Of a stretch of 32,000 nt of DNA, positions 3,962 to 11,467 are shown piece by piece. Under the pieces are notes generated by a model that did not search any database, had not been told where the DNA came from, and saw only the letters and a list, made by a program, of their open reading frames with translations. The DNA comes from Candidatus Saccharimonadota bacterium (lineage in GTDB: Bacteria > Patescibacteriota > Gracilibacteria > BD1-5 > UBA6164), in assembly GCA_963677765.1 (NCBI GenBank), contig OY782392.1, forward strand, positions 390,001-422,000, written 5' to 3'. Within the stretch, counting starts at the first letter, position 1. Every line of letters starts with the position of its first letter. Made by a program: the position numbers and the translations under genes.

Positions 3962-5005
3962 TTAAAAATCCCAAGATCATTTCATAGCACTAGATTGTGC
4001 ATAATTAGTAACTGTAGATTCAAAAAAGTTACCTTTTTCTGAGTTATTATCTTGTAATCTATCAAGATGCTTATAAGGGTTTTTTACTACATTTTCATAT
4101 AATGGTTTTATTCATAAAAGAGATAATCTTTCATTAGCTAACCATTTTGTATAATTTTCTATATTTTGATGTCACATTCATATTATATTTTCTCATAATA
4201 TATGTTTTGACCACTTTATTTCTTGATTAACTGCTGTATCCATCATTTCTACTATAAGTTTTTCATCATACATTTCAGGAAATTCTTTTTTAATTTCTTT
4301 AATCATGTTTGCAAATATTGTAACATGAGTTAATTCGTCTCTTCTAATATAATTAATCATTCTATCAGTAGCAACCATTCTTCATTGATCAGCTAAAGTA
4401 TCAAAAAATGCAAAACCATTATAAAAATAAATACTTTCTAATAAAAAGTTTCAGATTATTCATCTAAAAAAGTTTCTATCATTTGGTTCATCAATAAAAT
4501 CTTGATATATTCAACCTATAAACTCATTTCTTTCTAACAAATGTTTATCTGTTCTCCAGAAATAATATATTTCTTCTCTTTCTTTAGAGTCAACTATAGT
4601 TTCTAATATAGTAGCATATGATTGTGAATGTATAGCTTCTTGGTAAGCTTGAATACTAAGAATCAAATTTACTTCTGGAGCTGTTACATATTCAGAAAAG
4701 TTAGGAAGATTAACTGTTTGTATACTATCAAGAAATATTAAAAAAGATAATATTCATTTATATGCTCTTCTTTCATCATCACTCAATTCTTTTTTATATT
4801 GAGTTGCATCTTCTCATAATCATTTTACTTTTTCAGGAAGCCAAAAATTTCAAACCATTACTTGATATAAACTTTTAGCCCAATTATATTTAACTGCATT
4901 TAATTGAAATAATCATGTTGTATTTCATTTTATTATAGTTCTTTCTGATACAGAATCATCTCATTTTGGGTTAAATATAAGACTTGCTTGCATTTCTTGT
5001 GACAT
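3962..5005 (-). CDS. nrdB: Class I ribonucleotide reductase beta (R2) subunit (347 aa)
   Basis: 348 codons. Di-iron ligand motifs QEAIHSQSY and RDELTHV. Includes the ORF-track fragment MVATDRMINYIRRDELTHVTIF.. . Confidence 0.93.
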
Positions 5006-5030
5006 ATCTATTTATTTTAAAAACTAATAA

Positions 5031-5471
5031 TTATTTTCTGTTATTTATAAACTCTATAAAATCTTTTGCTGATTCAAAGTTTAAGTGAACAGATGCATAT
5101 CTAATATATGCTACCTCATCTATTTTTAATAAGGCTTCTAAAACATCCTTTCATATATCTTTTGAGCTTATTTCTTGTTTTCAACTCCATTTAAACTCCA
5201 AAGTTTTTATTAAATCATTTATAACATGAACACTTAAATTTCTTTTATTCAAGGCCTTTATTATACTGTCTTCTAATTTATCCCTATTATATCTTTCTTT
5301 TCTATTTCATGTTTTCTCTACAATCAAATTAATTATCTCTATTTTTTCAAAAGTAGTAAATCTATTATGACAATTTTCACACTCTCTTCTCCTTCTTATA
5401 GTTTTACCATCATCTGAAACTCTAGAATCGATTACTCTTGTACTATCATTTCAACAATTTATACAATACAT
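5031..5471 (-). CDS. nrdR: Transcriptional repressor NrdR (146 aa)
   Basis: N-terminal zinc ribbon [33 protein letters not shown] followed by an ATP-cone. It ends 25 nt upstream of nrdB (operon). Confidence 0.95.
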
Positions 5472-5482
5472 ATTTATATAAT

Positions 5483-5530
5483 TATTCAATATATTTGGTA
5501 TAGTGATACTTATTATAACTAAATATAGTA
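5483..5530 (-). promoter_or_regulatory. Candidate degenerate NrdR-box pair upstream of nrdR-nrdB
   Basis: tattcaatatatttgg (5483-5498) and ataactaaatatagta (5515-5530) each match the strong box tacacaatatatagtt at 10 of 16 positions. Their centres are 32 bp apart, as expected for tandem NrdR boxes. Confidence 0.4.
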
Positions 5531-5559
5531 TTTTTCAATAAAAAAATTAAAAAAAATTA

Positions 5560-6261
5560 TTAATTTCTTATTCAAACATTTTTAACAAATTTTAGTGATA
5601 AATTTCTAAAATAATTTAATTCTTTTATAGAAAAACTCTTTCATTTAAATGATTTTTCCAAAGTATTTCATGACTTAAAGTTTTGCAAATAATAGTTTTT
5701 TGCTCAAGAAATATATTTAGCAATATTTTCAATATTTTCATCAGTATGAACTCCTGAGATAACAGTAGTTCTAAATTCATAATCTATGTTTGAATTTAAA
5801 ATTATATTTATAGATTCTAAATATGGTTTTTCATTTAATTCAACTCAAGCAGATTCACTAAATTTTCATATTTCGTTCTTTATATCCATAGCTATATAAT
5901 CGAGTAAACCTTCTTCTATAAGTAATTTCAAAATTTTAGGGTCTCTTCAATTAGTATCTAATTTTAGTTTATATCACATTTTTTTTATCTTTTTACAAAA
6001 ATCATATAAATCAGTTTGTAAAGTTGGTTCACCTCAACAAATAGAAACTCAATCTATTAATCATTTTCTCTTTTCTAAAAAATTAAAAAAAGATTTTTCA
6101 CTTATAAGATTTTTATAAACATTTTTTAGTTTTTCTGGAACTACGAATTCGCTATTATGACAATAAGAACATCTAAAATTACATCCTGGACTAAAAACTA
6201 TACAAGAAACTTTTCAAGGATAATCAATAAGACTAAAAGGAGTTATTCATGATATTTGCAT
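5560..6261 (-). CDS. nrdG: Anaerobic ribonucleotide reductase activating protein, radical SAM (233 aa)
   Basis: 234 codons. Radical-SAM cluster motif PGCNFRCSYCHN and SICGGEPTL. Positioned directly after the nrdD pieces. Confidence 0.9.
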
Positions 6262-6263
6262 AA

Positions 6264-6449
6264 TTAAGAATATTTATTTATAAATCTTAAATTAGAGTCT
6301 TGTTCTTTAAAATAATTCCTAGAATAAAATTCAGATTTTTTTCATATATTAAAACTAGATACAGGTCTATGATATCACATAACTCTAGTATATATTTCAC
6401 ACTTAGTTCTTGAAAATAGTTTTCATTCAGTATTAATTGATAATGACAT
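6264..6449 (-). CDS. nrdD: Stand-alone glycyl-radical C-terminal piece of class III RNR (61 aa)
   Basis: MSLSINTEGKLFSRTKCEIYTRVMGYHRPVSSFNIGKKSEFYSR.. carries the NrdD glycyl-radical signature (RVxGY..RPV..N.GK..E). It has its own ATG, in a different frame from the large nrdD ORF and 23 nt downstream of its stop. Confidence 0.8.
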
Positions 6450-6472
6450 AATTATTAAAATTAATAAATAAA

Positions 6473-8677
6473 TTATATTTTTGTTTTTTCTATATTTTTA
6501 ATTTTTTCAAAATCATCAGTATAAGTCCTTCTTGTCTCTAAATCAAATTTATCTCAACTATATCATATCTCTTCATCACATTTTGGGCAATAATCATGTT
6601 CTCAAACTATATATCAATGATTAGGACATATTGAAAATGTTGGTGAAATAGTAATATATGGAAGCTGATAATTTGAAATTACATTTTTGACAAAATTTTT
6701 ACAAGATTTACTATCTGTTAGCCTTTCTCACATATATAAATGTAAAACAGTTCATCAAGTATATTTACATTGTAATTCATTTTGTTCATCAAGTGCTTCA
6801 TAAGGATCATCTGTAAATCAAACTGGTAATTGAGATGAGTTTGTATAATAAGGAGCATCATTAGTTCATGCTTGTATAATATTTGGAATCTGTTTTTTAT
6901 CTTCTTTTGCAAATCTATATGTAGTTCCCTCTGCAGGTGTAGCTTCTAAATTATATAAATTACCTGTTTCCTCTTGATAATCTTTTAGTTTATTTCTCAT
7001 GAATTCTATAATTTCCATAGCGAATTCTTTTCACCAACTAGTTGAAATATCTTCTTTTCAAGCAGTAAAATTTAATATAGCTTCATTCATTCAATTCAAT
7101 CAAATAGTAGAAAAGTGGTTTCTAAAACTTCTTAAATATCTATAAGTATAAGGATATAATCATCTTTCAAGCCATTTTGTAACTTCTTTTCTTTTAAGTT
7201 CTAAAGATACTTTAGCTTGTTCCATTAGATATTCTACTCTTTTTTTAAAAGATTCTTTATCTCATGCTGTATTATATCAAATACGAGCCATATTAAGAGT
7301 AACCACTCATATACTTCAAGTCATTTCTGAACTACCAAATAATCAACCTCACCTTTTTTCTAATTGAGTTAAATCAAGCTGCAACCTACAACACATTGAC
7401 CTAACTGCTCATGGAGTATAAGCATCTGGATTTTTTACAGTTTCATATGTTCAATCAGATTTTTTTAATCTTTTATACTGACTTCAAACAAAATTTTGAA
7501 AATATGGAAGACCATATTTAGCTGTCATTTCAAATAAAGCATCTATATCTGGATCATCCCAAGGAAAATCTTCTGTAATATTGTATGTAGGTATAGGAAA
7601 AGTAAAAACTCTTCAATTTCTATCTCAAGCTACATAAACATCAATCAAAGCTCTATTTATTATTCTCATTTCATCTTCAAGTTCTCAATATTTTTTTTCA
7701 TAATATCAATTATCAATTCAACCTAAAAACAAAGCCTTATCCTTTAAATCATCTGGAACAGTCCAATCCAAAGTTATATTGGTAAATGGTGATTGTGTTC
7801 ACCACCTACTAGGAACATTCAATCAAAAAATAAAATTTTGCATTTGTTGATAAACATATTTATAAGTTTTATTATAAATATATTTTTCTTTTTCTTCTTC
7901 TGATTTAAAACTAGAATTTACTTCTTGTAATTCTTTTTTTATTTCTTCCTTATATTTATGTACAAATGGAGCTAAATAAGTATCAAAACTTGAAAAAGCT
8001 TGAGCTCAAGCCCATTCATTTTGTAAAGTTCATAAGAAGTTTATCATTTGATTAACAGCAGCTTGCAAATTTTTAGCTGGAGCAGAATCTACTCTTTTAT
8101 CAGATCAATTAAATCATTCTTCTAATAATTGTCTAAGACTCCAACCTGCACAATAACCAGAAAACATATCTAAATCATGTATATGAATATCTGCATTTCT
8201 ATGGAGATTTCAAATTTCTGAAGGATATATATGGCTAAGCCAATAATTAGCAGTAACTTTTCAAGAAATATTTAATATCATACCTCAAAGTGAATAACCA
8301 GAATTAGCATTAGCATTTACTCTCCAGTCTGATTTATTTAAATATTCCTCCATTGAGTCTCAAACTTCAATTACAACATTTTTATCATTTCTTAATTGAT
8401 TTCTTTTTTCTCTATAAATTATAAATGATTTAGCAACTGTATCATGACCATCTTTTATAAGAGATTCCTCTATAGAATTTTGAATATCTTCTACACTTGG
8501 TATATCTGTTCATATCTCCTCCTCTAAATATGAAATTGTTTTTTCAGTCATATCTGAAATCAAAGAAAAATCATTTCATCAAGATGCTACAATTGCTTTT
8601 TTAATAGCATTTTCTATTTTTTTTATATCAAATGTAACAATAGAACCATTTCTTTTCCTAACTTTATAAATAGCCAT
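6473..8677 (-). CDS. nrdD: Class III (anaerobic) ribonucleoside-triphosphate reductase, large piece lacking the glycyl-radical tail (734 aa)
   Basis: 735 codons. N-terminal ATP-cone (MAIYKVRKRNGSIVTFDIKKIENAIKKA). Core motifs SGYCAGWSL, FTFPIPTYN, CCRLQLD and LEATPAEG. Zn site ISPTFSICPNHGYIVGEHDYCPKC. Ends with TAA 6475-6473. Confidence 0.93.
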
Positions 8678-8702
8678 AATAGGAAATTTTAAAACAAATA
8701 AA

Positions 8703-8749
8703 AACTATATATTGTGTACACATAAATATATGATACACAATATATAGTT
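8703..8749 (-). promoter_or_regulatory. Tandem NrdR boxes (pair 1) upstream of nrdD
   Basis: aactatatattgtgta (8703-8718) is the exact reverse complement of tacacaatatatagtt (8734-8749). Centres are 31 bp apart. Both resemble the published NrdR-box palindrome acaCwAtATaTwGtgt. Confidence 0.8.
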
Positions 8750-8806
8750 TTTGCAATAAATTTTATATATTTTTATTTGACTATTATTCATTTTATTTTA
8801 ATTGGA

Positions 8807-8854
8807 AACACAATATATAGATAATATAAGTATTTTTATATACAATATATAGTA
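8807..8854 (-). promoter_or_regulatory. Tandem NrdR boxes (pair 2) between the nrdA stop and nrdD
   Basis: aacacaatatatagat (8807-8822) and tatacaatatatagta (8839-8854) are each 14/16 identical to the box at 8734-8749. Centres are 32 bp apart. The last box abuts the nrdA stop codon. Confidence 0.75.
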
Positions 8855-11467
8855 TTAACCACTACAACTATCACAACTTTTTACATCTAAACTCATAGAT
8901 CTAACATAATAAACTGTTTTTATTCATTGTTTATGAGCTTTCATGTAGTATTGATAAAGTTCTCTTGGTGATACTTTAGCAGGATCTATCATCCATTCAA
9001 AAGAAATAGATTGATCTATCCATTTATAGATAACTGAAACCATATCTATAACATCATTCATATTCATATTTACATATTCTTTGTAGTACCAAAAATTTTC
9101 TTGATCTAAATTTGGTGCTACATTAACACTAGGTGCAATTGCATTAGTTTCAACAAAGTATTTTTTATAAATAGGAAGAATTGATGCAGTTGTTCATACA
9201 ACTAAAGCTGTAGAAGTATTAGGAGCAGGAGCCAAATGATAAGCGAATCTAACTCAATCTTTTTTAATATCATCAATTAGTTTTAACCATTTATCAGACA
9301 TTTCTGAGTTATTTTTATACCAATCAGCATCTTTTCATAATAAAACTCATTTAGACCATTCTGATCATTCATATAGTTCATATGTCCCTCTTTCCGAAGC
9401 AAGTTTATTAGATGATTTCAAAGTTCTGTACGCATATTTTTCAAATAATTTATCAACTACTTCTCTAGCTTCTAGAGAATCATAAGATAATTTATTTACA
9501 GCTAAATATTCAGCTAATCATAAGAAACCTAATCAAACTGATCTATATCTTTGAGCTGTCCTTTTAGCTTCTTTTATTGGATAAAAATTTAAATCAATAA
9601 CATTATCTAAAAGTCTCATAGCAACAGGTATAACCTTTTTAATATCTTCATCAGTATTTACTTTTGCTACATTTATAGAAGCTAAGTTACATACAACACT
9701 ATCACCTGGTTCATATTTTATTACTATATTCCCATCTTCTAATTCTTCTTCCACAAATTTAGAAGTACTTGTATTTTGACATATTTCTACACATAATTGT
9801 GTTGAATATACATTTCAAGCATGTTTATTTGGATTTAAAGCATTAACTGTATCTCTAAAGAAAGCATAAGGCATTCATGTTTCTACAGTAGTTTTTAAAT
9901 ATTTTTTAAATAAATCTTTTGCTTTTATTGTTTCTTTTAATTCTAGTTCTGGATTATTTTCACATTCAACATAAAATCTTTCAAAATCTTCTCAAAAATG
10001 ATCTTGAAGTTTTTTACCTGTAACTTCAGAAATTTCTTTTGGATCAAATAAAGTCCAATCTTCATCATTAGCAACTCTCTCCATAAATAAATCTGGGAAT
10101 GTTACTGCTGGAAAAACATCAAAACTTTTTGATCTTATATCTCAAGTTTCTGTTTGTAAGTCTAAGAAACTATAAATATCTCTATGAAAAGCATCTAATG
10201 TTACTGAAATAGCTCATGCTCTAGCTCATAATTGATTTACAGCAACTGCAGTATCATTTATAACCTTAATCCATGGGTTAACACCTCAAGCAGCTCATTT
10301 TACTCATCTAATACTAGATCATTTTGATCTTATATTTCATAAATATACTCCAATACCACCTCAAAACTTTGATACTTGAGCCATATTTTCTATAGAATGA
10401 TAAATAGCTCTTAAATCATCATCAACATTAAATTTGAAACAACTAGATAATTGATGAAAATTAGTTCTAGCATTTAACAAAGTAGGTGTTGGTAAAGATA
10501 TTTTTCAAGTAGCACAGTAGTCATATATTTTTTTAGCAACTTCTAATCTTTTTTCTTTTGGTTCAGGTATAGCCAAAAATAATGCTGCACTCATATACAT
10601 TTCTTGAGGTAATTCTTTTGTTACTTTATTTGGATTTAAAAGATATCTTTTTTTATACATCAAAACAGTTGTATAATTATATTCAAAGTCATATTCTTTT
10701 TTTAAATAACTTCATGCTTCCAATATATCTTCTTCAGTGTAATAATCATAAAAATTTTTATAATACTTTCCTGATTTTATATATTCATCAAATAAACTTT
10801 TATAATGTTTAGATTCATAAATTTTTTTAATATCCATATTTCTATTATATGAAGCTTCTTTATATAAATCTATCAAAGCAAGTCTACCTGCTATAAATTG
10901 CCATGATGTATTTTCAACACTAACTAAATCAACTGCTGACTTAATAAGCATTTTTGTTATATCTGAAGTTTTCATACCTTCTACAATATATTTTTTCAAA
11001 CTATCCGAAATCTCTTCAAATCTACATTTTCTTGCTAATCAATAAGAAACAATTTTGTATGTTTTTCTTACTTTTTCTATATCAAAGTTTTCTTTTTTTC
11101 AAGTAGTTTTAGTTATTTTAAATGTATTTTTTTCAAGCTTTTTTTCTACTTTTTCTTTTTGTTTTTCTCTTATTTTAGATCTTTCATTTCTATAAATAAT
11201 AAAATGTTTCATTACTTCAAAATGCCCTTCTTTCATAAGAACTCTTTCTATTTGATCTTGAGCCATTTCTATAGTGATAACAGCTTCTCATTCACAATCG
11301 TCTAAATAATTAGATAAATTTTCTATAACTTTATCTGTTACATCATCAACAAAATCAAAATCATTATTTCAAATAGCTTCAGCTGCTTTTTCTATAACTC
11401 TTTCTATTCTTGTTCTATCAAAGTTAACTAAATCCCCCTCTCTTGTTTTTATAAATTTCACTTCCAT
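8855..11467 (-). CDS. nrdA: Class Ia ribonucleotide reductase alpha (R1) subunit (870 aa)
   Basis: 871 codons. N-terminal ATP-cone (MEVKFIKTREGDLVNFDRTRIERVIEKA), which implies class Ia rather than Ib. Active-site region ..SVVCNLASINV.. (ORF-track fragment). C-terminal redox Cys pair ..KSCDSCSG. Confidence 0.95.

Follow-up and report, generated by a model that had tools for sequence, protein, structure and literature searches.

The gene for an anaerobic (class III) ribonucleotide reductase (RNR), nrdD, was analyzed in a window of 32,000 nucleotides (nt) from a Candidatus Saccharimonadota bacterium (Patescibacteriota; Gracilibacteria; BD1-5; UBA6164), comprising positions 390,001 to 422,000 of contig OY782392.1 in assembly GCA_963677765.1. 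In this window, nrdD is present as two open reading frames (ORFs) on the minus strand: a large ORF that stops behind the Zn site and a small ORF, with an ATG of its own, that carries the glycyl-radical motif. We consider it very probable that the pair encodes an obligate two-subunit class III RNR of the NrdDh/MCCR type, in which the catalytic subunit is made as two polypeptides. The large chain would supply the ATP-cone, the ten-stranded barrel, the Cys finger loop, the Zn ribbon and a conserved tail, while the small chain would supply only the C-terminal glycyl-radical loop.

Gene structure at the break

All coordinates are window positions, and the minus strand was translated with table 25, in which UGA is read as glycine. 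A preliminary description of this DNA had proposed that the nrdD ORF ends at a TAA, that a pure A/T spacer follows and that translation restarts at an ATG in a different frame, which is open for 16 codons 5' of this ATG (KYRKNKNIIYLLILII). The coordinates, stop, spacer, restart and 16-codon opening were all reproduced under table 25 (Table 1). Relative to the large chain, the small frame is −1 (equivalent to +2) and it is open from position 6497 through the large-ORF stop. The radical motif CEIYTRVMGYHRPV is indeed present on the separate ORF of 61 amino acids (aa), with nrdG starting 2 nt past its stop, at 6261, and the radical glycine is, as had been claimed, encoded by a recoded UGA codon.

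The same division is seen at the level of protein profiles. The Pfam family PF13597 (NRDD) matches the large ORF with its positions 2-529 of 562 (561.5 bits) and the small ORF with positions 531-562 (28.5 bits; cut-off 26.2), and ∼164 nt lie between the two halves of the match. The NCBIfam profile PRK08270 is likewise divided between both ORFs. A Shine-Dalgarno-like motif is absent from the 25 nt preceding the start of each of the window's 30 genes, the small ORF included. As leaders of these genes contain 0-5 G/C per 25 nt, in a window with a GC content of 23.4%, and all lack a Shine-Dalgarno-like sequence, the A/T-only leader of the small ORF is ordinary for this genome.

Membership of the large chain in NrdD is supported by scores well above the curated cut-offs of NF006126 (1019 bits; cut-off 548) and TIGR02487 (437.7 bits; cut-off 326), and both the xCCR finger-loop motif and the Zn-ribbon ligands of class III RNRs are present. 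No glycyl-radical loop was found on the large polypeptide itself, the profile match ending at position 529 of 562. The xCCR finger-loop motif defines the subclass NrdDh, and its MCCR variant the group NrdDh4 (PMC4493059). MCCR is found in the large chain of the window and in all 44 aligned sequences, which makes NrdDh4 the candidate assignment of the split form. Across the same 44 sequences, drawn from several phyla, SMCCR, the Zn ligands and ∼200 further columns of the large chain are invariant.

The C-terminal tail of the large chain had been described as atypical. In an alignment of 13 tails from the same family it turns out to be a conserved feature of the subfamily, with the motif D-x-E-[IL]-G-Y-x-G-x-[KR]-[FY]-D-x-x-x-R-x-x-[YF]-[TS], and its length varies between 23 and 42 aa among same-order loci. 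Here the tail stands in place of a direct connection to the Gly loop, and it may be where the small chain docks.

The product of the small ORF is MSLSINTEGKLFSRTKCEIYTRVMGYHRPVSSFNIGKKSEFYSRNYFKEQDSNLRFINKYS. It matches PF13597 only and not PF01228, the pyruvate formate-lyase (PFL)-type glycyl-radical domain that is characteristic of GrcA. An alignment of 28 small chains contains 17 invariant columns: R14, C17, T21, R22, V23, G25, Y26, R28, P29, V30, F33, N34, G36, K37, K38, E40 and R44. The genome encodes exactly one NrdD large chain and one small chain. No PF01228 domain was found anywhere in the genome, nor any other radical domain or glycyl-radical enzyme. With one large chain, one small chain and no PFL-type radical domain in the genome, the adjacent activase NrdG is left with no other plausible substrate.

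The radical glycine, Gly25, is also encoded by TGA in six loci (L011, L015, L016, L017, L020 and L039) and by GGN in the rest. In the window, TGA encodes the two invariant small-chain glycines, the radical Gly25 and Gly36 in FNIGKK (the sites recorded for the small chain are 6375-6377, 6342-6344 and 6423-6425), as well as 41 of the 53 glycines of the large chain (6473-8677). TGA at both invariant small-chain glycines is a clean internal proof that UGA is read as Gly. Under table 11, the small ORF would terminate exactly at the radical glycine. Such truncation, combined with database labels such as 'hypothetical' or NrdD fragment, means that RNR surveys may score NrdDs of this kind as truncated or inactive.

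Conservation, selection and reach

To the extent that relatives of the same order carry NrdD, they carry it in two pieces. Of 40 relatives whose whole genomes were searched, 22 have NrdD (with the window's own genome, 23 of 41), distributed over three families, and in 23 of the 23 NrdD-bearing genomes the NrdD profile match is two-piece. A continuous in-frame nrdD, which would have spoken for a broken normal gene, was found in none of these 23. At class level, NrdD is present in 70 of 151 genomes, ∼60 of which have it in two pieces. The layout is far beyond chance and recurs in every NrdD-bearing relative of the same order examined.

We compared 38 related split loci (39 with the window), including twenty further loci at class level. 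In these 38, the large ORF stops 5-82 aa past the Zn site and is accompanied by an ATG-started small ORF, which in the same-order loci is 53-100 aa long and carries (R/K)C(E)(I/V)(Y/W)TRVMGY. The preliminary description had suggested looking for the same stop, spacer and restart in relatives: stop and ATG restart are conserved, whereas the spacer is not. Spacers range from 1 to 904 nt over the 39 loci and are unalignable even between species of the window's own genus. The frame offset of the small ORF is 0 in 7 loci, +1 in 21 and +2 in 11, and in 18 of the 39 the frames are not joinable by any single frameshift. Gene order varies as well, since in L034 and L035 (genomes G140 and G095) the small gene lies ∼2.4 kb upstream of the large one on the same strand. 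The minimal split is represented by L026, where the tail has 5 aa, the small chain has an N-terminus of 8 aa and a single TAA lies in frame. These recurrent stops and restarts, with varying frame, spacer and order, support a genuine two-piece NrdD, which was one of the two options originally put forward.

Fused members are rare in the sample, being limited to L023 and L024. In L024 (CPKC-DEMTL-CEVWTRVMGY) only DEMTL is found where split loci have the tail. A quick, unrooted FastTree of large chains places both among split sequences, and because this tree is unrooted the direction of change between fused and split is unsettled. A distinct one-piece NrdD occurs in some code-25 genomes of another family of the class (L025 and L027, in G120 and G092; also G129). 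It resembles the T4/E. coli type (CxxC...CxxC, RRTCGYLG) and not the split type.

Selection was estimated for each part separately. Mean pN/pS, the ratio of nonsynonymous to synonymous differences, is 0.19 within the family and 0.22 over all loci for the 35-codon core of the small chain, 0.25 for the barrel and 0.50 for the tail (13 same-family tails), values that are rough because synonymous sites are near saturation. They indicate that purifying selection acts on both pieces and on the tail. Moreover, substitutions do not accumulate at catalytic residues: in the 44 aligned sequences catalytic and Zn residues are invariant.

The split form extends well beyond the order. A search of a protein collection with the small chain, limited to candidates of 34-107 aa, yielded 2419 small proteins, named 'anaerobic ribonucleoside-triphosphate reductase' or 'hypothetical protein' at their source; named sources include Ca. 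Gracilibacteria, the Patescibacteria group and Ca. Vampirococcus. A scan at the DNA level, using one genome per species and independent of gene calls, confirmed 588 stretches, of which the best 80 were inspected. In 67 of these 80 loci, an ORF with the Zn site (CPxHGY..G.H..CPxC) stops 10-54 aa past the site, and the Gly motif follows in another frame or behind stops. In the remaining 13, either the flank was too short or a Zn-site ORF was not detected by the script. A one-piece gene is present in none of the best 80 loci.

Taxonomically, the loci from the DNA scan cover Gracilibacteria, Peribacteria, Moranii-, Uhr-, Nomura- and Magasanikbacteria on the Patescibacteria side. They also cover Bdellovibrionales, many beta-, alpha- and gamma-proteobacteria and Sulfuricurvum, the proteobacterial genera including Achromobacter, Ralstonia, Janthinobacterium, Castellaniella, Vogesella, Devosia and Marichromatium. 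Other groups are Elusimicrobia, Parachlamydiales, Fibrobacterales and Bacteroidota (Flavobacteriaceae, Saprospiraceae). Cultured isolates with this layout include Achromobacter sp. M1, Janthinobacterium sp. CG3, Castellaniella hirudinis, Vogesella facilis and Chitinimonas viridis. Two loci that had appeared to be fused, L082 and L084, were rejected as such: they look continuous only because their one in-frame TGA becomes Gly under table 25, and with table 11 they are split. In four proteobacterial loci (L082, L084, L087 and L100) the pieces share a frame with a single TGA between them, and low-level read-through of this TGA could yield some fused protein.

Related stretches are also found in viruses, with 350 in a viral collection (IMG/VR contigs L123-L202 among them). 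Sixteen viral records (G180-G195) were searched whole, six of which are at least 90% complete and four of which have terminal repeats. In 15 of the 16 the small chain is present and the large chain absent; one record of 174 kb has both, ∼3 kb apart. The lone viral copies argue that the small chain functions as a free subunit, with the large chain encoded elsewhere.

Proposed assembly and alternative explanations

In order to locate the break in the fold, both chains were aligned to solved NrdD structures. For the large chain, the alignment extends as far as CPKC(D)/CPKC(G) with P. copri NrdD (8P23) and as far as residue 609 with T. maritima NrdD (4COI). The small-chain profile aligns to residues 614-645 of the T. 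maritima protein and places Gly25 on the radical site Gly621. [quoted passage not shown] Taken together, the alignments and this topology put the break exactly at the hinge between Zn ribbon and radical loop.

Since the two chains of the window are in different frames and cannot be modelled as one, a relative of the same order was modelled instead, namely the read-through of L046 (on the same contig as L008), with its single in-frame TAG taken as Gly. The model alignment contained 44 rows, consisting of in-frame read-through and large-only rows. The resulting AlphaFold model has a mean predicted local distance difference test (pLDDT) score of 78.9 and a predicted template modelling score (pTM) of 0.74. 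Its tail forms short helices (pLDDT 78-85), and the N-terminal hairpin of the small chain and the CEIYTRV strand reach 73-79. A Foldseek search with the model returned only class III RNRs at the top. The read-through model is compatible with a canonical arrangement.

The two pieces belong to a single minus-strand RNR block at 3962-11467, in the order nrdA, nrdD-large, small chain, nrdG, nrdR and nrdB (Table 1). An adjacent NrdG activase with CX3CX2C, as is typical of class III RNRs, is present, and nrdG lies downstream of the small ORF in 23 of the 23 same-order loci. It is at most 60 nt away, sometimes overlapping, in 15 of these 23 and in 16 of all 39 loci. All four palindromes that fit ACACAATATATAGT with at most one mismatch lie in the 177-nt gap separating nrdD from the nrdA stop, and they are likely the operator of an operon of nrdD, the small ORF and nrdG. 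For nrdR, the listed TTG start at 5489 is probably wrong; the ATG at 5471 yields the usual MYCINCG zinc-ribbon start. This 1.05-Mb genome retains both an O2-dependent and an O2-sensitive RNR.

Table 1. Features of the RNR block, given in window positions; the aa ranges in the Position column refer to the large chain.
Feature	Position	Strand	Details
nrdA, class I RNR alpha	8855..11467	minus	870 aa with ATP-cone; TIGR02506 542.6 bits (cut-off 341)
Four NrdR-box-like palindromes	8704-8717, 8735-8748, 8808-8821, 8840-8853		two pairs, spacing 31 and 32 bp
nrdD large chain	8677..6473	minus	734 aa; TAA stop 6475-6473
ATP-cone	aa 5-93	minus	PF03477 69.5 bits
Finger-loop motif SMCCRLQLD	aa 427-435, nt 7373-7399	minus	
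Zn site CPNHGYIVGEHDYCPKC (CPNH..CPKC)	aa 684-700, nt 6578-6628	minus	
C-terminal tail DEEIGYSGDKFDLETRRTYTDDFEKIKNIEKTKI (DEEIGY...KTKI)	aa 701-734, nt 6476..6577	minus	34 aa
Spacer, TAA to ATG	6472..6450	minus	23 nt, A/T bases only
Small chain ORF	6449..6264	minus	ATG 6449; 61 aa; coding to 6267, stop 6266-6264
Radical glycine Gly25	6377-6375	minus	TGA codon; equivalent to T. maritima NrdD Gly621
nrdG, radical-SAM activase	5560..6261	minus	233 aa; CNFRCSYC aa 27-34; TIGR02495 NrdG2 213.8 bits (cut-off 131)
nrdR, transcriptional repressor of RNR genes	5031..5489	minus	TIGR00244 155.9 bits (cut-off 124.65)
nrdB, class I	3962-5005	minus	NF007184 402.6 bits (cut-off 310)

We propose the following course of events for an active two-subunit enzyme. 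An NrdR-controlled promoter probably drives joint transcription of nrdD-large, the small ORF and nrdG, and translation of the small chain probably begins at the ATG of this ORF. A hydrogen atom would be abstracted by NrdG from Gly25 in the small chain. The small chain would sit in the barrel mouth beside the Zn ribbon, with Gly25 facing the finger-loop cysteines, as in a one-piece NrdD. Since the large chain itself lacks a radical loop, it is the small chain that would be the regular radical subunit, and not a spare.

Several points weigh against this proposal. For this particular genome, its support is genetic and comparative, and the literature yielded no biochemical demonstration that a free NrdD-type radical peptide is assembled or activated in trans. 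In the model of the relative, pLDDT falls to 53 at the Gly loop and below 45 beyond it, so that the read-through leaves docking undemonstrated. Additionally, a −1 slip on an A6 run (GAAAAAAC) would join the two frames, and a minor fused product may be formed.

One extension of the two-subunit proposal goes further, and we regard it as doubtful. The radical might be borne by a free, exchangeable 'cartridge' of 6-8 kDa that NrdG activates off the enzyme and that then docks into a loopless barrel. If oxygen cleaved such a cartridge, a new one could take its place while the 84-kDa chain was kept, and phages could exploit this. If true, phages would carry only the cartridge gene to keep or boost anaerobic deoxynucleoside triphosphate (dNTP) synthesis by the host, and an exchangeable radical part would for the first time be known from an enzyme other than pyruvate formate-lyase. 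The lone small-chain genes of viruses leave room for this extension.

Among the alternatives to two separate subunits, a programmed −1 frameshift on the A-run before the TAA, giving a one-piece NrdD with a hydrophobic linker (NIEKNKNIIYLLILIIMSLS), seems very unlikely to us. The frame relation in the window would suit it, as the small frame is −1 and already open from 6497 past the large-ORF stop, and the A6 run would allow tRNA-Lys to re-pair. However, the frame relation is not conserved among relatives, with offsets of 0, +1 or +2, and 18 of the 39 loci are not joinable by one shift or place the small gene ahead of the large one or as far as 900 nt away. Furthermore, each small ORF begins with an ATG, the peptide at the junction is not conserved, and viral records carry the small chain alone.

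We give still less credence to the small chain being only a GrcA-like spare part, that is, a repair module for an oxygen-cleaved radical domain rather than the regular bearer of the radical. Its size and free-standing nature are those of GrcA/YfiD, lone copies exist in viruses and the cell, given its O2-dependent class I RNR, meets oxygen. On the other hand, there is no radical loop on the large chain that it could replace, and neither a second NrdD nor a second small chain is encoded in the genome. The small chain also belongs to PF13597 and not to PF01228. The analogy with GrcA/YfiD drawn in the preliminary description is therefore sound as to function but not as to family, nor as to a role as spare part.

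Decay or an assembly artefact, the second option raised at the outset, is refuted by the conservation of the locus, by selection and by the intact catalytic residues. The sequence at the junction is homopolymer-rich with 23% GC, where a one-base error or decay might break a normal nrdD. Yet the stop and restart occur in all 23 same-order NrdD genomes and in 67 of the 80 loci from other phyla, in independent assemblies. Purifying selection is indicated for both pieces and the tail, the catalytic residues are invariant, and ∼164 nt, not one base, separate the profile halves. We find this explanation scarcely credible. Least plausible of all is post-translational rejoining by protein trans-splicing, for example through a split intein: extra residues do flank the break (34 aa in the tail, 16 aa at the N-terminus of the small chain) and CEIY begins with a Cys, but these extensions (34 aa, and 8-47 aa for small-chain N-termini) are far below intein halves (∼100 aa for an N-intein), on inspection of the sequence the tail begins with Asp and not Cys/Ser and R-T-K/R rather than His-Asn precedes the Cys, the fused L024 has the same Cys, and L026 is split with a tail of only 5 aa and an N-terminus of 8 aa.

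Relation to known systems

In glycyl-radical enzymes, the radical glycine is described as residing in a C-terminal domain of the catalytic polypeptide, and the activase is thought to require that this radical domain swings out of the barrel. A natural, separate loop protein of 6-8 kDa would offer an experimental handle on substrate recognition by the activase, on the entry of the radical loop into the barrel and on the exchangeability of radical parts. The form of class III RNR found here, in which the glycyl-radical loop would be supplied in trans, is widespread and unremarked in the searchable literature, in which no description of a split or bipartite NrdD, of a stand-alone radical subunit or of a Gracilibacteria anaerobic RNR was found; subscription journals are mostly outside its coverage. 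The genome paper of C. metallidurans CH34 assigns NrdDG to Rmet_5137 and Rmet_5139 and skips 5138 (PMC2864759); Rmet_5138 may be an unremarked small-chain gene.

The closest known systems are the one-piece NrdDh enzymes with their NrdG, such as those of T. maritima (4COI/4U3E) and N. bacilliformis. They share with the window locus the ATP-cone, the barrel, the xCCR finger loop, the Cys/His Zn ribbon, the RVxGY radical loop and the adjacent NrdG2-type activase. They differ in that here the radical loop is a separate gene product, and in the conserved tail of ∼34 aa, which is missing from fused relatives. Other solved NrdDs are those of P. copri (8P23), S. thermophilus (9D3X) and phage T4 (1H78).

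A second parallel is provided by the PFL cofactors GrcA/YfiD of E. coli and Y06I of phage T4. These are likewise small and free-standing, consist of a glycyl-radical loop only, are presumably activated by the activase of their partner, and are also carried by phages (PMC13450708). According to the same 2026 review, spare-part proteins are known only for formate lyases, their existence for other glycyl-radical enzymes being 'yet to be determined' (PMC13450708). In contrast to GrcA/YfiD, the small chain described here belongs to another family (PF13597 versus PF01228), its partner lacks a radical domain and it would be obligate.

RNR catalytic subunits in more than one piece have precedents in other classes. 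NrdA of Aeromonas phage Aeh1, a class I enzyme, is split by a homing-endonuclease gene, whereas no mobile element is present in the 23-nt gap found here. In the class II enzyme NrdJa/NrdJb of Pseudomonas aeruginosa, two adjacent genes encode the catalytic subunit and their products must assemble, as is proposed for the two NrdD chains; the N-terminal piece of NrdJ has an extra C-terminal element proposed to hold its partner (PMC9669993). This class II case is the only split RNR that reviews of RNR insertions mention (PMC9669993). Unlike both NrdJa/NrdJb and the NrdA of Aeh1, the break in nrdD parts the radical cofactor from the barrel, and the second piece is only 61 aa long.

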